A stretch of DNA of 64,000 nucleotides, from assembly GCA_951406725.2 (NCBI GenBank), contig OX597822.1, positions 111,848,001 through 111,912,000 on the forward strand. Reading direction: 5' to 3'. The first letter of the stretch is position 1, and the number at the start of each line of letters is the position of its first letter. A program made the position numbers and the translations under genes. Below the pieces are notes generated by a model. The model saw only the letters and a program-made list of their open reading frames with translations. It had not been told where the DNA came from and did no database searches. The DNA is from Octopus vulgaris (taxonomy: Eukaryota). Below, piece after piece: positions 3,931 through 60,437 of the stretch.

Positions 3931-4115
3931 TATACAGTCAACAGATTACACTTTTCGAAAACAAAAGAATCTTAACATCGGGTTATAAAATATAAGAAAA
4001 TAAGAAGTTTGTTTTAAAAGTAATTTCATTAAAAGATGATATAAGTGTTATCTTAAGATGACAGTAACAGATGTTTGCTATTATGTACATTTAAAAGTAC
4101 TTTTGATAATGTTTA

Positions 4116-4165
<50 letters not shown>

Positions 4166-4191
4166 GTTATTATTATTGTTATTATTATTAT

Positions 4192-4739
4192 TGAGTGAGA
4201 GAACAGTTCATGCCATCAAAGTGACACTGGGGTAAAATATACGAAGCCCAGTATACCCATCATGACTACCCGTCTGATAAGGGTACACTAGGTACATGCA
4301 TCACAACCATATGTGCGCAACATGGTGATCTCATATCAAGATAAACAGCACATAACCTTGCAGGTGGGGCCCAGTTAGAATTTTCTTCAGGTTGAGTAGC
4401 CCATCCCGCTCAAAAGGTCCCTGAATAAGGGTTGTTTAAAGATGTTGAAAGAACCACCCATGTTTCCAGAGGTGAATTATTCAAACCCCAAAGAATCCCT
4501 CTCAACACATGGCTATGATGCTCCCCCACTACTTCTGCTCGTGATCAGAGATGCACATATCGTCAGCCACTAAGGGACATGCTCAACTGGTTAAGGTCAA
4601 ACGACTGACAAGCAAATCTGTGGTATTGAGCAGAATATTTGCTGTAGCCCATACCAAGACAAAACAATGTACATAATAACACTTCCAATCAGTTAAGATC
4701 AGAAGCCATGAGAGCCACTGCCTGGTACTGCATCAGGGC

Positions 4740-14195: not shown

Positions 14196-14577
14196 GGAGG
14201 CGCATTGGCCCAGTGGTTAGGGCAGCGGACTCGCGGTCATAGGATCGCGGTTTCGATTCCCACACCGGGCGTTGTGAGTGCTTATTGAGCGAAAACACCT
14301 AAAGCTCCACGAGGCTCCGGCAGGGGATGGTGGTGATCCCTGCTGTACTCTTTCACCACAACTTTCTCTCACTCTTACTTCCTGTTTCTGTTGTACCTGT
14401 ATTTCAAAGGGCCGGCCTTGACACTCTCTGTGTCCCGCTGAATATCCCCGAGAACTACGTTAAGGGTACACGTGTCTGTGGAGTGCTCAGCCACTTACAC
14501 GTTAATTTCACGAGCAGGCTGTTCCGTTGATTCGGATCAACCGGAACCCTCATCGTCGTAACCGACGGAGTGCTTCC
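14196..14577 (+). mobile_element. SINE family A
   Basis: Homologous to 89-479. TSD GATTAGAAAGAG at 14185-14196 and 14578-14589. Confidence 0.9.
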
Positions 14578-19914: not shown

Positions 19915-22195
19915 ATCACTTTGACTTGATCACTTTGACCGACCAGTCCGTCAGGCGTCCATTTGACACCGCTGGTCACAGCACGCTGTCCACTCCTCGC
20001 TGGATCGCGCCTTTCTCATCCACGTGATCCCAATCGTCCTCCTGAAATCGTCACTCCGCCGTCGTGGAGGTCTTCCGGGTGGTCTTTTCCGCTCACGCGG
20101 GTACCACTCGACAACTGCGTGCGTCCACCGATTATCGGTGAGCCGGGCGATGTGTCCAGCCCATCTATACTTGCTGCGAGTATACTCTGCGATGACATCT
20201 CTCACGCCGGACTTCTTTCTGATGCTGCTGCTATTTATGTGCTCTCTCAACGAGATACCAAGCATTGACCTTTCTATGGCTCTTTGAGCCGTTATCAATC
20301 TTTGCTCTTCTCTCTTTGTGGTAGCCCATGTTTCACTACCATATAACATTGCAGGCAGAACTGCACTGTTAATGAGGTTGGCGCGGGTGGTCCTGTCCAA
20401 CCTTCCCTTGAGCATATCCCTTGGCTACCATGGCAGAGGCGAGGCAGCTCTACATCGGAAACAGCCTATTCAGGAAGAGGGAGAGGAAGAGATGGACTTG
20501 GATATCGCCGAACTCTAAGCACCGAAGCGAGATCGACTACATCCTGGTTGATAAGCGACGCATATTGCATGACGTCTCCGTCGTGACGCCATTCAACACC
20601 GGCAGCGATCATCGTCTGGTAAGGGCGAGGGTCGTCATCCACGAGAAGAGGGAGAAGATGGCGTTATATTTGGCGTCGAAGGGAAAAAGCGTCCGAGTCT
20701 ACAACGAGGCAAAGCTGCAGGAAGCCATCATGCAGAAAGACTGGTGCCAAGGAGACGACATAGACGATGACTACAACTCATTGATAGGGAAACTGAAGGA
20801 GTGTTTAAGGAAGGCTAAGGGTGTATGCCCAAGAGAAAAGAAGGGAAGAATCTCGGAAGAAACTACGAAGTTACTCGAGAAGAGGAAAAATATGAAGAGG
20901 ACTATTGAAGATCACCTTGAATATTCCATTCTCAGCAGAGTGATTCGTCAACAACTAAAGAAATACTTTGAGGCATACCGGATGGAGAAGCTTTTGAAGG
21001 CCGCAGAGGAAAAGAAGAGCCTCAAGAAATGCAAGAGGGACATGGTACTATATAGATCGGAGGTGACGGCCCTGAAAAATACAGATGGAATACCGGTCAA
21101 CGAGAAGAGCGAGATGAAAAAAGTTTGTGAAGACTTCTACACCAAGCTCTTTAAGTCTACCAGCCGTTACCACCACTCCAACAGGAAGAAAACGTGCCAC
21201 CTATCCTTGTCAGTGAGGTTGAAAGAGCCATCGGCTCGATGAAAAACGGAAAGGCTCCAGGAAAGACGGTATAACATCGGAGGTGCTAAAGTCAGGCAGA
21301 GAGCAGCTCTGGAAAATCCTCGCTGAGCGATTTACGCACTATCTAGACGAGGAAGAATTCCCTCGCAGTGGAAAGAGTCAAATACCATCCTGCTGTATAA
21401 GAAGGGCGACAGAGAAGATCTAAAGAACTACCGACCCATATGCCTGCTGTCTCACGTGTACAAGCTGTTCACGAAGATAATTCTGAACAGGTTGTCACGT
21501 CGTCTCGACGAACAACAACCGAGGGAGCAAGCAGGCTTCCGGAAGAACTACAGCACAATGGACCATATATTTGCTCTAACGCAACTGCTTGAGCGAGCAA
21601 ATGAGTACAAGCTGCCTCTTTGCGTTGCGTTTATAGATTATGAGAAGGCCTTCGATAGCGTCGAAACCAACGCAGTGCTGAACTCGCTGCAGAGGCAAGG
21701 AATCGAAGCGCAATATGTGCAGCTGCTCAGGGTGGCAAATTCCGGATGCACCACCGACATAGCTCTACTGTCATCACCCATACGAGTGCCGGTCGAGAAG
21801 GGAGTGAAGCAAGGAGATACAATCTCCCAAAAACTTTTCACTGCATGTCTCGAACAGATCATCAGAGGCATCGAATGGCAAGGTGGTGTCAACATCAATG
21901 GCGAGCTCCTCACTCACCTCCGTTTCGCTGACGACATCGTACTCATCGCTGAAAACATGGATCAGCTTCAGACCATGCTGACGGAGCTCGACATCAAAAG
22001 TTCTGCAGTAGGTCTCAAGATGAACCGCATGAAAACAAAGTTCATGCGGTCAGACAACATACCAACAGGTCGAATGGTGATCGGCAGTGATGAAACAGAG
22101 GAGGTGAGAGAATATGTCTACCTGGGACAAGTAAATATGTGCCGGGATATCAAAAAGGAGATCTCACGGAGATTAAGGGACGGATGGAAGGCGTT

Positions 22196-22198
<3 letters not shown>
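19915..22198 (-). mobile_element. RTE-clade LINE, 5'-truncated with inverted 5' segment
   Basis: 3' segment on the minus strand 19915-20420 (MLKGRLDRTTRANLINSAVLPAMLYGSETW...CDQRCQMDA*, short UTR with TCAAAGTGA repeats). The upstream EN-RT segment lies on the plus strand 20421-22198. (TA)n on both flanks. Confidence 0.9.
20421..22198 (+). pseudogene. RTE ORF: C-terminal APE endonuclease plus reverse transcriptase, frameshifted
   Basis: APE motifs WTW.SPN..EIDYIL and SDHRLV. RT motifs KNYRPICLLS, EQAGFR, FIDYEKAFDSV, GVKQGDTIS and LRFADDIVL. Frameshifts around 21160-21270. Confidence 0.9.
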
Positions 22199-22254
<56 letters not shown>

Positions 22255-33810: not shown

Positions 33811-34313
33811 TGGAAGTGTTATCATGTACATTGTTTTGTCTTGGTATAAAAGATGGGCTACAGCAAATATTCTGCTCAATACCACAGATTTGCTTGTCAG
33901 TTGTTTGACCTTAACCAGTTGAGCATGTCCCTTAGTGGCTGACGATATATGCATCTCTGATCACGAGCAGAAATAGTGGGGGAGCATCAGAGCCATGTGT
34001 TGAGAGGGATTCTTTGGGGTTTGAATAATTCACCTCTGGAAACATGGGTGGTTCTTTCAACATCCTTAAACAACCCTTATTCAGGGACCTTTTAAGCGGA
34101 ATGGGCTACTCAACCTGAAGAAAATTCTAACTGGACCCCACCTGCAAGGTCATGTGCTGTTTATCTTAATATGAGATCACCATGTCGCGCACATATGGTT
34201 GTGATGCATGTGCCTAGTGTACCCTTATCAGACGGGTAGTCATGATGGGTGTACTGGGCTTCGTATATTTTACCCCAGTGTCACTTTGATAGCATGCACT
34301 GCTCTCTCACTCA
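33811..34313 (+). mobile_element. ~550-bp TAA-associated non-coding repeat, 5'-truncated
   Basis: High identity to the reverse complement of 4192-4741. TAA/CAA arrays on both sides. Confidence 0.8.
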
Positions 34314-34327
34314 ATAATAATAATAAT

Positions 34328-34410
<83 letters not shown>

Positions 34411-43139: not shown

Positions 43140-44070
43140 ATTCCGTACTGCAGTATCCCTCAGGAGTAGGTGGTTAAAACAAGTTAAAATAATATGCAGA
43201 GAACACCACTAGAAAATACGAAAACTAAAAGAAGCAGCACATATGCTAGGACACAACAACCTCTTAAGAAGACCGAGTGCCGATATGAGCAGCATGTGGG
43301 AATCGGTATTAAGGAAGGAGAGGAGAATATTAGATTTATAAGCCCTGAAATTCATTCCACAGTTTTTGGTGGGAGGGCGAAATCATTTGAATTTGTGTGC
43401 GTGCTGGCTTGAATTTAGGGTTTAACGTTTTGGGGGAAGGACTGGTTATTAGGCGCATGAGTAGGAAGCGGTGGTGGCGCAGGGTGTCTGTTTATTTGCT
43501 ATTGTTTAGATTTCCGGACATGAATACATAGTCAACGCTTTAGTGACAACATAAAATGCATGAAATGTTGGTGATATTTGTGTATGGTTATGTGTGTATC
43601 TTTATATGTATACTTATACATATATAGCGAGAGAGAGAGAGTGAGAGAGATAAATGTGTATTTATATGTATGTATATGTATACTCTTTTACTCTTTTACT
43701 TGTTTCGGTCATTTGACTGCGGCCATGCTGGAACACCGCCTTTAATCGAGCAACTCGAACCCGGGACTTATTCTTTTGTAAGCCCAGTACTTATTCTATC
43801 GGTCTCTTTTGCCGAACCGCTAAGTAACGGGGACATAAACACACCAGCATCGGTTGTCAAGCAATGCTAGGGGGACAAACACAAACACACAAACACACAC
43901 ACGCATTGATATATATATATACATATATACGACGGGCTTCTTTCAGTTTCCGTCTACCAAATCCACTCACAAGGCTTTGGTCGGCCCGAGGCTATAGTAG
44001 AAAACACTTGCCCAAGGTGCCACGCAGTGGGACTGAACCCGGAACCATGTGGTTGGTAAACAAGCTACTT

Positions 44071-46102
44071 TATTTCATAAGATTTGCCACTAGGGCAGTA
44101 CAAAGAGTAGCTGCATGCTGGACAAAAAACATTAAAGAATGATGGTGATGGGAGAAGACGAAAGCGCCCGCCGACTTTCGCTTCTCTAAGACATTGTTCT
44201 TTTTTTTCAAAATTTGACAAAAAATTCAATAAATTATTACAAATTTTAAAAGAGGCAATAAACCTCTTTTTCAGTACAATACAAAATGTTCAATAGGCCT
44301 ATGTAACCCGGCCGACCATCGCTCTTGCCTCACCGAGGCAATAATCGCTGGTCAGGTCGTGGTCCAAAGGTATAATTTGGAATGAGTCCATCGGGAAGGA
44401 ACCCACGATCCTGCCTAGATAACCCCTCCCCATGACCTCCGCAGCCAGCTGCGAAGGCCACTCGGGGTCCTCCGTGCAGGACCGAAGTCCCTCCCAATGG
44501 CCTCCCTTTCTCATTTTACGCACTGTATTTTCCACTGTTCCTCCTTTGAAAAAGAGGAGCACAAATTTTTCCACAAACTGTCCCTCAGGCGGCACACCCG
44601 CCTGAGAAGACTTGGGAGACGCCGTCTGCGTATCACAATCCGCCGGCAGCGTTCCGTTTCTCTTTTTTTTTCTTCTTTTTGCCTTGGGCCACGGGAGGTT
44701 GAGGTTCCGGAGTTGCACACACCGGGTTCTCTTCTCCCGCAGTTTCCAGGTCTTTTGGTGGGTCGCCATTGCTCCCCACTTTTCTTTTTCTTTTAGAGGA
44801 AGTCTTTGCTTCCTCACTCTGTTTCTCTCCCTCCATTGGGGGGGGCAGGGAGAGGCTCCGATATCAACTGCTCCAGGATCCTACTTTGGTCCCTGGGGCA
44901 GTTCTTCTTAATGTGGCCGGTCTCCAGACACAGGTGACACTTGGTGGGGCGTCCCTCAAGCAACACCGGATACCTGTACCCGGCCATCCTCAGAAAGTCC
45001 GGCAAGACCAGACTTTTGGCTGATTGGGTCCATAGGGTCAAAGTGGCCTTTGACCCCTCCCAATCAGCCGCAGGCTGTATTTTCACATTTAGGAGCTTGG
45101 CGCTGCTACCACCCAGACCCCGGCGGATAGAGTCCTCTATCCACTCGGGTTCAATGCCGGGTGGTAGGCCGCAGATCCACGCTCTCAGCAATTTTTCTCC
45201 CTTGTAGTTAGGGAGAAACAAAATCTCCTTGCCCTCAATGGGCTTGCTTGCAAAGTCGCAAGCTGCTTTAGGGGAGTCAAACAGCAACCAAACCGTTGCG
45301 TATTTGACTCCCCGTGCAATGTATTTAACGACTGGCATATAGTCTGCCAGCTCGTTAATGATAGTTGCCTTTGGAAAAATAGCTATGGTGTTGAGCGACT
45401 TTGAATAAGTCCTCAACACCACGGTCTTGTCCTCTAGCTCCTTCAAGTATTTTTTGGGAAGTGCTAGGTCCCACACAATAAGTTCCTTTGCCATTTTGTA
45501 ACGGAATCCAATAAAAGTTCAACAGGTGTAAAAATAAATACGATAGAAAGAGTGAGAAGAGAAAACACAACAGAAGAGAAGAATTACAATAAAAATGACA
45601 GTTCAAAAAGAGTTCTTTTTTAAATACAAGATAGCTGGAAGGAAGAGAGTTCAAATTTGGCAAAGAAATTAATTTTTTGGCCGAAAAGGTACTCCTAGCC
45701 AAGCGTCCAAAACAGTCCTTGGTTACTCTTGGTGCTTCTTGGTAAATCCCAAAAAACAGTCCTTGAATATCCTTTGTGCTTCTTGGTAAATCCAATTTGA
45801 ATTAATTTTTGAGGAGGGGCTACGCCTCCTCAAAAAACACAATTCTCACTGCAAAGTGAGTCTTTATACCCGACAACAGGCAGGAAAAAATACCTGGAAC
45901 AAAGTGAAGTCTATTACCTGCTAAAAAATATTAATGCTAAATAACACTAAATGCTAAAAACATTAAAAGCAAGCAATAAACCTCACTAAGCTCCTAAAAA
46001 TATAAAACGCCTACCTGTCGTCGAGTCAAAAAGTTCAACAAAAGTTCAATAATTCACGTAGCAACACGTGACTTTTGGAGCAGCCAAAAAAACACGTCTG
46101 TC
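44071..46102 (-). mobile_element. ORF1-only non-autonomous LINE-like retroposon (copy 1)
   Basis: Bounded by an imperfect 16-17-bp TSD inside a SINE. About 600-nt 5' UTR, one Gag/ORF1-like ORF, about 230-nt 3' UTR ending TGCCCTAGTGGCA...GAAATA. No RT sequence. Confidence 0.8.
44299..45494 (-). pseudogene. Gag/ORF1-like nucleic-acid-binding protein with CCHC zinc knuckle (about 397 aa; two homopolymer frameshifts)
   Basis: CHLCLETGHIKKNC = C-x2-C-x4-H-x4-C. Basic linker SSKRKRK. Frameshifts map to the G8 (44838-44845) and T9 (44663-44671) runs. Colinear with 50844-52156. Confidence 0.8.
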
Positions 46103-46152
46103 TGGTAAGAAGCTACTTACCACACAGCCACGCCTACGCCTATGTATGTGTA

Positions 46153-47747: not shown

Positions 47748-48004
47748 TTTATTTTAAGCAGCAGAAAATTCAACAAAATCTGTTACTCTGAGTTTCTCGT
47801 TGCCGTTCATCAGACAGTTTTTGCTAGAATGGAACCGGAAATATCGGTTCCATTCTAGCAAAAACTGTCTGATGAACGGCAACGAGAAACTCAGAGTAAC
47901 AGATTTTGTTGAATTTTCTGCTGCTTAAAATAAAGCATATTACTCTACCACTGGTATTTGAGTACTCTTTTTTCCACCTTGTTTCACATTTATGTGTTTA
48001 CTCC

Positions 48005-50550: not shown

Positions 50551-50843
50551 TATTTACATTTGACGAATATTTGTCTTCATCATGTTTGTTGTTAGCACAA
50601 CGTTTCGGCTGATATATCCTCCAGGTTCTAATCAGAGTACCATAGGGCTTGGAGTACCTGAATGCCCAGACAATTTTTTTTGCTGTGTTTTGCTGAACTG
50701 TTGTTGTTTTTTTCTTCTATTGTGACTCTCTTAGTGAACTGTTTGCTTTTTCTTTTCTCCCCTTTTGTTTCCTTTTGATTTCTCTCTTTTCTTTTTGAAA
50801 TTTGTGACCTATTTTTTGAACTTTTTACTTTTTAATATTAAAC

Positions 50844-52156
50844 ATGGCAAAACCTACGGATAAGATTGTAGAATGGGAGATTGCCCCACTTAAGGAGTGG
50901 CTCAAACAGCATGAGGAGAGGACGGTGGTTTTGAGAACGTATTCGAAGGTTCTCGACACCATTGCCGTCTTCTCCAGGCAGATGATTGAGCAGGAGTTGG
51001 CGGAACATCTGCCAATCATTAAGTATATCTCTTGGGGTGTCAAATATGCAACGGTGTGGTTGCTGTTTGACACCCCAGAGGAGACTCGCAGTTTTGCGAG
51101 CCAGCCCTTTGAGGGTAAATTTATTTTGTTTGTTCCCACTTATTGTGGGGAAAAAATTGACGAGGGCCTGGGTCTGTGGTTTACCACCCGGAATTGGACC
51201 GCAGTGGATAGCGGATACTATCCGTCGGAGTCTGGGTAGCAGCGGAGCCAGACTCCTCAATGTCAAAATTCTTCATGCAGCTGATTGGGTTGGGGCAAAA
51301 GCTGTTTTGACCCTGTGGACCCTATCAGCTATGAATCTGGTTATGCCAGATTTTTTGAAAATGACCGGGTGCAGGTTTCTTGAGGGTCGAACCCCCAGGT
51401 GTCATCGGTGCCTGGAGCCTGGCCATATAAAGAACAACTGTACTGAGGAGCAAATTCCTGGAGCAGTTGATTGAGACCTCCGTAGAAGAAGGAACGAAGG
51501 CAGCCGAGGAGACGGAAGACTCCTCAAAGAAGGGCCGCAAGAGGAAGAAGGTGAGTAACAGTGTGTGCTCACCGAAGGATCTTAGGGGTGAGGGAGGGGA
51601 GGCGAAACTCCCGCTTACGGAGGGGACGCACCCTCCCTCAGTTGAAGGAAAAAAAGAGGAATAGGAAGAGAAACCGGACATTGCCGGCAGTCGGTGACAT
51701 AGCACCGAAATTTCCCGGAACCTTGCCGGCAGGGGTTGTGCCACCGGCAGGGGTTGTGCCACCGGCAGGTGAAAAGACACCGTTGGGGGAATTGTTCCAC
51801 CAACGGTAGAATTGACTACCTCGAACCCGGAGGAAGACGAATTATTGGTCTTCTTCTCCAGAGGCGGAGAAGTATAAGAGGTGGTGGAGAAGCACCATAA
51901 GGGAGTACCTTTAACCTTCACACAGGATCTGGAATGGCCTCCGCAGATAGTTGTGGAGGTCATAACGTTGTCCGCGTCGTATAGGCCGCAGGGTCTCAAT
52001 GAGAGACATCGCTTGTGGCCGGGCGACGTCGACTCGGATCTCGCCTTGGTCTTGAATAAGGCGTGGGCGATGGCGAAGTATACGGCACAAGCGATGTTGG
52101 GGAGGAATAGTGACAAGAGGTTGAAAAGCCCCAGTGTTATAATGTTTATTGTATAA
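50844..52156 (+). pseudogene. Gag/ORF1-like CCHC protein of an ORF1-only retroposon (copy 2), disrupted
   Basis: Homologous to 44299-45494 (TVVLRTYSK, GVKYATVWLLFD, RAW.CGLPPGI, CHRCLEPGHIKNNC, EWP.Q...EV). Frameshifts and stops. No ORF2 downstream. Confidence 0.8.
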
Positions 52157-55413: not shown

Positions 55414-55709
55414 GAGAAAGAAAGGAATATAGAAATAGAGATGAATATGTTAATTGTCAGGCATTGATCATAAATATGAATCCTGAATTAAACCAAACAA
55501 CACATGCTCTTAATCCCTTTGGATCCTAATACCTCAAGGTAATTTTTTCGTGAACAATCATTAAACTAAAGATACACAACGAACTCACAATGTATCGGAG
55601 TACTTATTTTTTAATTTTTGTACATTTTTATCATTATTCTTTTACAAAAAACAATGCAATTTTCTTTTTTTCCCCTTTCTAATTTTTAAAAAACTTTTTA
55701 AAACATAAA

Positions 55710-55750
55710 TATTCTTGACAAGTCATACAATGACGAAAACCGGTTGAATA
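55710..55750 (+). ncRNA. Hammerhead-like motif with U3-A8 core in the 5' pLTR
   Basis: TATTC-TTGACAA-GTCAT ACA ATGAC-GAAA-ACCGGT-T-GAATA. Identical copy at 60218-60258. Confidence 0.6.
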
Positions 55751-55918
55751 AATATATATTTATATATTTTATCAATTTCTCATTTTATTAAAATTTTCTT
55801 TCATTTGAGCATTCTGCATTTTTAAAAAAATTTTTCCTTACTTATCATTTCTCCACGTGCGGTCAACACGACCCCACCATTTATTGATCTGTACCCTCTA
55901 CCACACGTGTGATTCAGA

Positions 55919-58900
55919 ATGCCTCCGAAAAACAAGAGTACTCTTACAGAGACAGTCACCAATAAAACCATTCTAAAAGTACTCAAAGTACTCAATACAC
56001 ATCTACTTACATTCTCCAAAAAATTGACGAACTTCTCCATCAATCCCGGGACAACTCAGAAAACAACCATCATCAACAACTTTCGGATAAAATTGATGTA
56101 AACCTAAACGAAATCAACACTACACTGAAAACTCTACTTACCAATTCAACGCCAAAGAGACCTCAGACACCACTCAACACACAGAAGGAACACACTTCAA
56201 CCCCAGCACAACGCATTAAAAACCAGATCATCACTACTTGGACTAAGAAACTACACAACAGAAAACTTCTCTTCTGGAACATGCTCAAAAACCAAAACAA
56301 AGCTGAAATTTACGACAAATGGTTAAACTCCCTCCCCTATCATACTACCCCGAAAATTCCAAATCAAACACATCCCAGACGAACCTGAAAAACAATGCTC
56401 CCTAAGAGAAAAACTAACATTGGAAAAAATGAAAACTGAAGTAGAACTTCTAAAACTCAGAGCACAAAACCACGAACAAAAATACACAAAAATAGACGAT
56501 GAGATACTTCTAGAACTAACCTCACACACCAACGAACAGCCCCTCGAACTTGTTATTAAACTATGGAAAGATGAATGTGAAAAGGAAGAACGAACCTCCC
56601 TTAAACGCTGGGAAAACAACAAAGATTTCTTCCTCAACTATGAAACACAATTCATATTAAACCATAAATCCAAAAACCCATTCATAAAAGTACCCACAAC
56701 ACAGACTTCCACTGTACCCCATAAACACCATTCCAAACCGCACCTCAAATACACATACTCTCCAAACCCCCTCCTAACAGGACACAACCTCCCCCAACCA
56801 TATAAAAAACCTTTTCCCCCCCGAAACATCTCAAACAAGACCCACCACAAAACCTGGTTTTCCAGTCACTCTAACACCCCTCCCCACCGATAAGAACCTT
56901 CAAGAACCTCCCATACACTAGGAATTATCCCCCCTCAATGCTACCCTCCCTCACACTAATAACAAACAAGGCATCCTACCCACACCGATACATATAATAC
57001 CCACCCAACGAACCCCCTATAGTCCACCCATCCAACAACCACATTCCTACCACATTTCCTACAGATCTCCAAACCCTCACATCCCACACGAACCCAATCA
57101 CCACAACTACATACCCCCTACATCCCCCCATACAATCTACCAGACACACACCCACAAACCCATCGCATTTCTCACAAAACCTTACACCATCGCATCCCAT
57201 ACCAACATAAATACCACAACTACCTACCCCCCCCCCAACCTCCCCACCCCAAAACACTCCTACACATACAACCAGAACTTTAACAAAGAATACACCCCTT
57301 ACCTCAACAACCATTTTTTAGACAGAGGGGGAAAATACAAAACCACCGCTAACACAGACCCAAAATAAGAAAACAAAGATTATAAACCTCTCCAGCCAAA
57401 CACTGACACCAACCCAAATCAACATCCTAGCAAGAGGTTTGAATGACGTTTCTGAATTCTGCAGAAAACTTCGCCTAACAGAAGCTTTGACAGATATCAA
57501 CAATGGGGACGATTCATTGATCAGAAATAAAAGCAACTTCCTACCATCAAAAGGGAGAAATAAAACACTGGACGATTTCTGCAAACACATCCAGAGTCTC
57601 CCCTTTACCCCAAGCAAAACCAAGGTAAAATCCAATTTCAGTAAGGAAGAATGGGAAAACCTACGTGACATACAACTGGATAAAAACCTCACCATCAAAG
57701 AAGCGGACAAAGGGAGTGCTGTGGTCCTTATGGACACGGAATTTTATAAACACCTAGTGTTTTCCATGCTTAACAATAACATTTTCTATGAGGTTATTAA
57801 CAACTACAAACAACAAAAAACAATCAGAAACCTCACCACACTCATACGCCAACACGGTCAGGGACTCACAGAAAAAGAAAGGGATTATATCACCATTTTC
57901 AAATGCAAGCCCAGCCTTTTTTATGGCCTTCCTAAAATCCATAAAAACAAATACATCACCGAAGCCTGCAAACTCTCCACTGACATCCACATCAACATCA
58001 AAGCACCGGAGGACCTAAAACTAAGGCCCATCGTGGCTGGTACCTCCTGTGAAACACACCGCCTGAGTAACTTCCTAGACATCCTTTTGAAACCTTTCCT
58101 TACCCACATCAAAAGTTTCATTAGGGATGATCTGGACATGCTCAAACACCTCCCGAAAACAGTTAACGAGGAGGCACTCCTGGTATCCTTTGATGTCATC
58201 AACCTCTACACCAACATCCCACATGAGTATGGTATAGAGGCAATTGACTTCTGGCTAGAAAAACACCCAGAGACATTCCCTGACCGCATTAACAAGTCTT
58301 TTATTACAGAATCTCTCAAGTTCATTCTGACAAACAATTTTTTTCTCTTCAACGACACATACTACCGTCAAAAATGTGGTATTGCGATGGGTACCAAGGC
58401 TGCACCAGTCCTTGCGAACCTCATAATGGGTTACTTCGAACTGTCACTCTATGAAATATCAAGCCAGAAATTTGGACATGTTTTCCACACCTACCTAATG
58501 GAAAACTGGAAAAGGTATTTAGATGATTGTTTCAGCATATGGAAAGAACCTTATGAAAAACTCCTGGAATTCAAAACCATACTAAACAACATACATCCCA
58601 ACATCCAATTCACTATGGAATTAAGCAAACATCATCTCCCATTCCTTGATCTCCTAATTATAAAAACACCTAAGAACCAAATCATAACAGACATCTACCA
58701 CAAACCTACAGACTCACAACAATACCTCCTCTTTAGTTCATGCCACCCAAAACACACCAAGACAAATATCCCTTTCAATTTAGCTAAAAGGGTGTGCACC
58801 ATTGTCTCGGATCCAAAAACACGAGAAATACGCCTTCAAGACCTCAAAAAAACACTATTACAACGTCAATATCCCTCCACCCTTATAGAGTATGGAATAA

Positions 58901-59585
58901 AACGCGCCAAAGAACTAGATAACACTACACTGAAAACCACCCAACCTAACACCACACACAACCTCAAAATACTTCCATACATTTCCACCCACAACCCCAA
59001 AAATATCGAAGCATACACCACAATCATACAAAACCTCAGTCTACTGTCAACAGACCCAAAAATGAAAAACATTATAAATACACACAAAATCCTCAAATGT
59101 AAAAGGCAACACAAATCTTTAAAAAAACTCTTGACAAATGCCAAACTTCACACACCACATCCACCCCCAACAGTAAAAAATGTGCACGCTCAAACTGTGG
59201 TACCTGCCCCTTTCTACTTGAAGGCTCTGAATTTACCTTCAAACAAGGTACGAAGTTTAAAATCAAGACTAACTTCTCCTGTTCCTCCGAGAACCTTATC
59301 TACGTTCTCACATGCGCTGGTTGCCAACATAATTATGTTGGACAAACGAGTCTCCCGTTACGTAAACGAGTAACGGTGCATAAAGAACAAATAAATCGCC
59401 CGGAATACCGACAAATTCCACTGAGTGACCACTTAGACTCATGTGCTAAAGACTTAAACCCCAAATTCTATATATTCCCCTTCTACCAATGTAAAGACGG
59501 GATCACCACACAGGAGAGAATTAACAAGGAGAATCTCTTTATTGAAAAATTCCAAACACAACTTAATATGCAAACTCCTCGTTGA
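55919..59585 (+). pseudogene. Penelope polyprotein: N-terminal region, RT, Cys linker, GIY-YIG endonuclease (frameshifted)
   Basis: 644-aa ORF 57439-59373 with ADKG, FYGLPKIHK, LRPIV, SFDVINLYTNIP, GIAMG and RYLDD. After a shift in the A-run near 59175 it reads KCARSNCGTCPF...NLIYVLTCAGCQHNYVGQT..LRKRVTVH...LN*. Confidence 0.92.
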
Positions 59586-60217
59586 TCAAACTTCCTTTTT
59601 CTACCTCACTCTTCATGGATGGACTAACACAAATATATAAAGATACCATGCATTCATCACTTCAAGCTAAAACTTATATTCTTTAAATATCATTTTTACT
59701 ATTGTTGTTATTACTATCATTTTTATTATAAATGATATGACAATCTGAAATGCAATTGTCTATGCAGATTTATATAATTAGAAAATAATATAAATAAAGT
59801 GTTAAAATCTGAAAGTTAAGTTAACAAGCAATTATATAAAAAAGATAACGCAAATGAAGCTAAAATGATAATTTTATAATTTGGGTTTTACCAACAGCCC
59901 TTATTGAAGAACTCAAAAGAGTTGTCTCCCCTTACTCACAACACAGGAACTGAAGAACCGCAATTACTACTACTTCCTGTCCTGCCAACATCCTGAATTA
60001 AACCAAACAACACATGCTCTTAATCCCTTTGGATCCTAATACCTCAAGGTAATTTTTTCGTGAACAATCATTAAACTCAAGATACACAACGAACTCACAA
60101 TGTATCGGAGTACTTATTTTTTAATTTTTGTACATTTTTATCATTATTCTTTTGCAAAAGACAATGCAATTTTCTTTTTTCCCCTTTCTAATTTTTAAAA
60201 AACTTTTTAAACATAAA

Positions 60218-60258
60218 TATTCTTGACAAGTCATACAATGACGAAAACCGGTTGAATA
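60218..60258 (+). ncRNA. Hammerhead-like motif with U3-A8 core in the 3' pLTR
   Basis: Identical to 55710-55750. Confidence 0.6.
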
Positions 60259-60437
60259 AATATATATTTATATATTTTATCAATTTCTCATTTTATTAAA
60301 ATTTTCTTTCATTTGAGCATTCTGCATTTTTAAAATAAATTTTCCTTACTATATATATATATATATATTAGAAAAAAACACCTTTTATCAATTCAAAATG
60401 AGCAATTAAATTACACCCTCAAATAATATTCCCTCAA

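Follow-up and report, generated by a model that had tools for sequence, protein, structure and literature searches.

How does a 2.03-kb insert that encodes one ORF1-type protein, with no sign of an ORF2, come to sit in an octopus genome? The insert lies in a stretch of 64,000 nucleotides from Octopus vulgaris contig OX597822.1 (the window, to which all positions refer), and was originally predicted to be a retroposon that moved as a complete unit. We consider it probable that a multi-copy retroposon family is represented here by a complete copy. The family would encode nothing but an ORF1-type protein (predicted to bind RNA), and for its movement it likely borrows the endonuclease and reverse transcriptase (RT) of an autonomous LINE, which probably belongs to the L1/Tx1 group. 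Alternatively, the insert could be a single deletion product of such a LINE, a retrocopy of a host gene, or a derivative of some other kind of retroelement.

Comparison with other SINE copies in the window shows that the insert (44071-46102, minus strand) splits the head of a SINE, as the original prediction had it: the site is uninterrupted in seven other copies of the host SINE. The head is presumably of the tRNA type, judging by motifs resembling A and B boxes; ARAGORN reported no tRNA in the host SINE. On either side of the insert (44062-44070 and 46110-46118) stands the exact 9-bp duplication AAGCTACTT, which, read against the seven empty SINE copies, is what insertion by target-primed reverse transcription would leave. 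A longer, imperfect duplication of 16-17 bp had been proposed, and the segments 44054-44070 and 46103-46118 do agree at 15 of 17 positions, an indel and a mismatch making up the rest, but the perfect part amounts to only 9 bp. If the 9-bp duplication is the true one, the insert ends at 46109 instead. Contigs assembled from sequencing runs bear on the seven intervening bases: each of four runs holds a high-depth contig that matches 22-23 letters from 46086 (i.e. to 46107-46108), six bases beyond the 5' boundary first given (46102), and the alignment of a diverged contig (X6-24) reaches as far as 46115, which is 13 letters inside the flank. Either bases 46103-46109 are the element's own start, with a 9-bp duplication, or other copies also sit in a SINE head. 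As to target preference, one of the two copies in the window (copy 1, the insert) occupies a SINE head; copy 2 is elsewhere.

Table 1. Position of the insert's parts, of its insertion site and of a second copy within the window.
Feature	Position	Strand	Remarks
Host SINE, body and 3' part	43679..44070	-	83-93% identity to 7 other window copies
Target-site duplication at element 3' end	44062..44070	.	exact 9 bp; imperfect extension to 44054
3' UTR	44071..44298	-	228 nt; two predicted hairpins, 44248-44270 and 44152-44186
ORF1	44299..45494	-	397 codons, broken at two homopolymer runs
C-terminal segment	44302..44577	-	about 90 residues; common to copy 2 (tblastn E 2.7e-4, 27%)
T9 run (A9 on coding strand)	44663..44671		second frame break, in K/R-rich linker
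G8 run	44838..44845	.	first frame break; 1-nt deletions at 44838, 44840 and 44841 in 4/4 runs
Single CCHC zinc knuckle	44895..44942	-	residues 185-200; Pfam PF00098
Predicted RRM 2	44952..45194	-	residues about 101-181; Prp24 4n0t, Z 8.5, rmsd 2.3, 72 aligned (residues 101-180)
Predicted RRM 1	45198..45440	-	residues about 19-99; La RRM 1zh5, Z 9.0, rmsd 2.8, 83 aligned, on residues 11-100
5' UTR	45495..46102	-	T-rich; 608 nt (615 nt if start = 46109); hairpin 45806-45836; covered in all four runs
Seven bases	46103..46109	-	either imperfect part of 16-17-bp duplication or element's own first bases
Target-site duplication (46110-46118) and remaining host-SINE head	46110..46140	-	
Copy 2, decayed relative	50620..52156 (to about 52160)	+	partial 5' UTR; ORF1 from ATG 50844, several frameshifts and stops

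Between these boundaries lie the parts that had been anticipated: a 5' UTR, one ORF of about 397 codons with a CCHC knuckle, and a short 3' UTR. ORF1 begins with an ATG at 45494 and stops at 44301-44299; its 1196 nt make 397 codons once two surplus bases are subtracted, and none of its three pieces contains an in-frame stop. The 3' end of the element reads AATA, which directly abuts the duplication and forms AATAAA with its first two bases; there is no poly(A) tail. Folding of the 3' UTR gives z scores, relative to shuffles, of -2.45 for the whole and of -4.2 and -2.1 for the hairpins. The proposed lack of any trace of RT or endonuclease is borne out: no RT core motif occurs in the six frames of the element, the accompanying Pfam check was empty, and 228 nt lie between the stop and the 3' end. 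The best other open frame in the 3' part has 73 codons and matches nothing in Pfam; as a candidate ORF2 remnant it is unsupported, being equalled in 57 of 2000 shuffles and lacking a start codon. The element bears no terminal direct or inverted repeats, and Rfam returned only microsatellite and palindrome matches below gathering scores. Two stretches of the 5' UTR (45860-45962 and 46009-46086) are replaced or skipped in high-depth contigs of all four runs, which suggests a more common subfamily whose 5' UTR is different.

The window holds other repeats. A LINE remnant, which we take to be RTE-like, runs from 20412 to 22253 (plus strand), with endonuclease-like and RT frames (RVT_1 E 1.6e-32), and is cut by a TA microsatellite. 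A Penelope-like element at 55480-60350 (plus strand) has a 683-codon RT frame, a GIY-YIG frame (59103-59585) and direct repeats of about 400 bp at both ends. There are also a near-perfect 107-bp palindrome, possibly a MITE (47788-47894), and dispersed repeats in inverted orientation that are 93-97% alike (98-479 with 14196-14577; 4101-4652 with 33853-34404). The window's own RT and endonuclease frames matched neither copy by tblastn, a weak test in which control regions reached only E 0.3.

AlphaFold2, given residues 1-217 of the ORF1 protein and an alignment of 64 rows, returned a model with a pLDDT of 90.8 that has the two RRM folds and the knuckle which the original prediction had led one to expect. 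VIA-align gave RRM matches on both halves (Z 7-9), among them, besides those in Table 1, U2AF65 RRM1 for the second half (5w0g: Z 8.4, rmsd 2.7, 74 aligned). Foldseek found 87 matches at E 0.001 or better, and those listed are all tandem-RRM proteins, with low whole-chain TM scores. The sole Pfam signal in the protein is zf-CCHC, at an E of about 0.015 (0.014-0.015) and below the curated cut-off; the knuckle reaches E 0.1 or better in 23 of 64 aligned relatives, and Transposase_22 matched none of the 64 aligned members. In the atlas, CCHC clusters and clusters of the ZCCHC3-type RNA-binding domain appear as neighbours at 0.91-0.93. For the N-terminal 217 residues the model is one of two RRMs plus a CCHC knuckle, the layout of a type I LINE ORF1 protein. 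The C-terminal segment has no assigned family or fold (best atlas hit 0.85, with hits under 0.9; pLDDT of 40 in a single-sequence model), and homology to the tails of five other ORF1 proteins, suggested by visual comparison, was not significant (hhalign probability under 1%, scores below shuffles).

The same data bear on whether the insert could descend from an LTR retroelement, or from another one outside the LINEs, as a Gag-only form whose terminal repeats are lost or absent. CCHC knuckles also occur in Gag of the retroviral type, and the Pfam match covers the knuckle only; but the insert lacks terminal direct or inverted repeats, is flanked by a duplication of 9 bp or longer and ends in AATAAA, and its fold is predicted to be a tandem RRM, not a capsid. 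The model largely refutes such an origin, which we consider extremely improbable.

When 1.84 billion representatives were searched with a profile of the protein, 65 reached E 0.001 or better; those that span the full domain are about 18-28% identical, six of the ten hits looked up are Octopus records, and 21 hits scanned contained neither RT nor endonuclease. In a tree of 21 sequences the two window copies and the relative P0001 form one clade (support 100/100) on a long branch, its three lineages being 57-70% identical in protein sequence, and these three are without the N-terminal extension of 34-285 residues seen in 11 other proteins measured. Two weak searches for longer homologues, such as ORF1-ORF2 fusions, found none; they covered 1377 candidates in the range 397-2000 aa and 7988 in the range 1508-4305 aa. 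Metagenomes yielded as related locus one chance knuckle match (L001), and viral contigs none. Some distant ORF1 relatives (the P0003 cluster, P0007 and P0030) lie on contigs that, at 1.7-2.2 kb, roughly match an ORF1-only element in size; these contigs could equally well be assembly fragments.

The closest protein is LOC115225585 of O. sinensis (281 aa, 68% identity), an annotated gene with three protein accessions, and ZCCHC3, a host protein that resembles a LINE ORF1, has domain clusters at 0.91 in the atlas. Both would suit a retrocopy without a mobile life of its own, made when a LINE passively copied a host gene that had been domesticated from an ORF1. Against such a retrocopy stand the missing poly(A) tail, the large number of copies and their broad spread in identity (mostly below 95%, in a count dominated by SINE flanks), the three divergent lineages of the one clade, and the presence in an unrelated gene model (P0012) of a piece of this ORF, as scattered repeats would give. 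We regard it as very improbable.

A further prediction concerns number: a family in the short form should be represented by other copies in which ORF1 is joined directly to the 3' UTR. Contigs from four of the 24 runs listed were aligned to the element including its SINE flanks, and all 30 bins of the element were covered in each of the four. Relative to single-copy-like depth (a rough reference taken from the low-depth pieces listed; depth is no copy number), the lowest bin stands at 11-29x, the stop and 3' UTR bins at 19-36x, the 3' hairpin bin at 670-1570x and the best-conserved ORF1 bin at 900-2000x. Each of the four runs has four to seven contigs that cover 44274-44277. Contig X8-25 (201 nt, depth 51, i.e. 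several times single-copy-like depth) aligns end to end over 44179-44384 with 17 other letters and 7 gaps, at about 88% identity, and bridges the stop codon. Its alignment suggests a diverged, collapsed set of copies with the same direct join of ORF1 to 3' UTR; among the pieces listed (32 of more than 280,000) it alone is shown to bridge the stop codon by 31 letters on both sides. Together with the coverage, this join gives indirect support to the earlier claim of a multi-copy family: the short form appears, from assembled sequence, to propagate as such.

Depth also speaks for a different history, in which an autonomous Tx1-type LINE suffered a one-off or very low-copy internal deletion, during or after insertion, and the short form never spread. 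In all four runs the depth near 44160 is 20-80 times that at 44274 (8820 against 166 in X5). A depth of hundreds to thousands for the ORF1 core and 3' hairpin, with tens at the junction, fits an abundant parent that shares both; with the ORF1 core so far above the junction bins, most relatives may carry ORF2. Copy 2, moreover, has no recognisable 3' end. A deletion confined to this locus is nevertheless hard to square with X8-25, which crosses the same junction, and with the contigs over 44274-44277 in every run, and the searches (weak ones) found no ORF1 fused to RT or endonuclease. We judge a one-off deletion to be improbable.

Rather unlikely, in our estimation, is also a more far-reaching proposal: an old, self-standing ORF1-only lineage would be the main form of this octopus ORF1 clade (its relatives, numbering roughly a thousand, would have the ORF1 core and the 3' hairpin in common at comparable depth), would have lost the N-terminal extension present in other octopus ORF1 proteins, and would include at least one subfamily that targets the tRNA-like head of the commonest SINE in octopus and has a few target bases at its own 5' end. 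If this were true, a protein-coding LINE parasite would be inserting into another LINE parasite.

Evidence of selection comes from comparison with copy 2, which lies 5 kb from copy 1 and adjoins another copy of the same SINE. The two are 72.7% identical over 578 nt, with amino-acid identities of 56% and 59%. No ORF2 follows ORF1 in copy 2 (the longest stop-free stretch in the next 3.1 kb has 97 codons), and we found neither a convincing target duplication nor a 3' end common to copy 1; copy 2 could thus be an autonomous element truncated later, and lends the family weaker support. Over 198 N-terminal codons dN/dS between the copies is 0.20 (bootstrap 0.12-0.32; dS about 1.1); for the C-terminal segment it is 0.85, on an unsure alignment. 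Variants in the ORF (40 of 594 variants being listed) are synonymous in 12 of 23 cases, with 24% expected (P = 0.003). These values indicate purifying selection on the N-terminal RNA-binding domain, as read from codon comparisons; the low dN/dS could date from autonomous ancestors.

The reading frame of copy 1 is disrupted only at the G8 and T9 runs, exactly as the original prediction stated. At both places relatives appear to keep the frame: among the 12 of 107 indels listed, all four runs show 1-nt deletions at the first (Table 1) and a 2-nt insertion, at 1-16% of depth, at the second, and P0001 reads through the first in frame. If the two breaks are not assembly errors, the present copy has probably lost the ability to make full-length protein. 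The best run covers 0.53 of sampled words, and at positions 44578 and 46073 the window's letter is found in none of the four; the runs therefore represent the exact copy unfaithfully. All three fully read sequences break or end at the same K/R-coding A-run (44663-44671 in copy 1, the 51650 region in copy 2, which also shifts frame there, and the end of P0001), possibly a mutation hot spot, a sequencing error or a recoding site. A programmed frameshift at the A-run was considered and set aside: A-runs are hot spots of mutation and of sequencing error, and some relatives keep the frame.

How would such an element move? The steps that follow are drawn from established LINE biology. The family would have originated when an autonomous LINE lost ORF2 by internal deletion. 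Its RNA would be transcribed from the 5' UTR, coated in cis by its own ORF1 protein, and captured by the ORF2 protein of a partner via a 3' end that the two have in common, namely the hairpin at 44152-44186 together with the terminal motif, with target-primed reverse transcription as the last step. That hairpin is common to a far more abundant set of sequences and is likely the recognition element. As to a possible LINE derivation of the 5' and 3' parts, protein homologues, metagenome loci and viral contigs yielded no autonomous partner or ORF2-bearing parent. Candidate partners are plausible, since O. vulgaris has (PMC13282606) 80 L1-Tx1 consensus families, of which 13 were recently active, with 421 insertions over 2.29 Mb and an average of 5.4 kb per insertion in the recently active families. 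Predicted fold, family, junction and selection agree with the proposal of a non-autonomous, HAL1-analogous family that has its own RNA-binding protein; its candidate partner and its clade we infer.

The kind of element is known. ORF1-present non-autonomous LINEs include HeT-A (from Jockey), HAL1 (from L1) and Ag-Sponge (from CR1), and have been proposed to work through multimerisation of ORF1p with the proteins of a partner (Kojima 2018, PMC5786205). The octopus element has the marks of this class, namely an ORF1p-type protein (predicted), no ORF2 and a target duplication, and it resembles the bipartite members in joining a 5' UTR and ORF1 to a 3' end without ORF2; Tx1-type and molluscan cases, by contrast, are absent from the list in the accessible part of that paper (PMC5786205). 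No description of an ORF1-only family in a cephalopod appeared in the openly searchable literature, including the accessible parts of mollusc repeat papers (PMC8967140, PMC11203168), a scope that leaves out Repbase, Dfam, a Zenodo library and subscription journals. The original statement that no description was known holds to this extent for cephalopods, but not for the kind itself, which has been described, invertebrates included; nothing is overturned.

As to clade, an ORF1p with RRM and CCHC is of type I and, in non-mammalian animals, is consistent with Tx1 (PMC5203782). The octopus protein shares this type, a feature found outside Tx1 as well, and Tx1 is the likely clade on these comparative grounds. 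A preference for repetitive targets, among them snRNA genes, microsatellites and transposons, is seen in many Tx1 families (PMC4494074); here copy 1 sits in a SINE head and copy 2 does not. The element differs from Tx1-clade LINEs in having no ORF2.

The mammalian HAL1 (half-L1) encodes only ORF1p, is non-autonomous and arose several times from its LINE (PMC5753468); in guinea pig it kept ORF1 coding capacity for 29-44 Myr (PMC3627910), and mammalian L1 ORF1p is of type II, with a coiled coil, one RRM and a CTD (PMC5203782). The octopus element likewise encodes only an ORF1p but differs in that the protein is of type I (two RRMs and one CCHC, as predicted) and in its independent origin in a mollusc. 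Another difference lies in the poly(A) tail, which is a feature of HAL1 and which the octopus element lacks. HeT-A of Drosophila is Gag-only and without pol, borrows RT, has a gag under negative selection and is bound to telomeres (PMC5537684). The octopus element resembles it as a Gag-only type without an RT of its own. HeT-A, however, derives from Jockey, is confined to chromosome ends in head-to-tail arrays and serves its host, whereas the octopus element has inserted internally, into a SINE, is flanked by a target duplication and gives no indication of a host role.

Families of this sort would be overlooked or wrongly labelled in repeat libraries that rely on RT domains, and prediction programs annotate them as genes (LOC115225585). 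The element supports the idea that ORF1p is needed in cis and that ORF2p can be borrowed. It works like HAL1, HeT-A and Ag-Sponge, yet is a member of neither HAL1 nor HeT-A, and with it the range of ORF1-only LINE derivatives comes to include a mollusc and, probably, the L1/Tx1 group with an ORF1 protein of type I.
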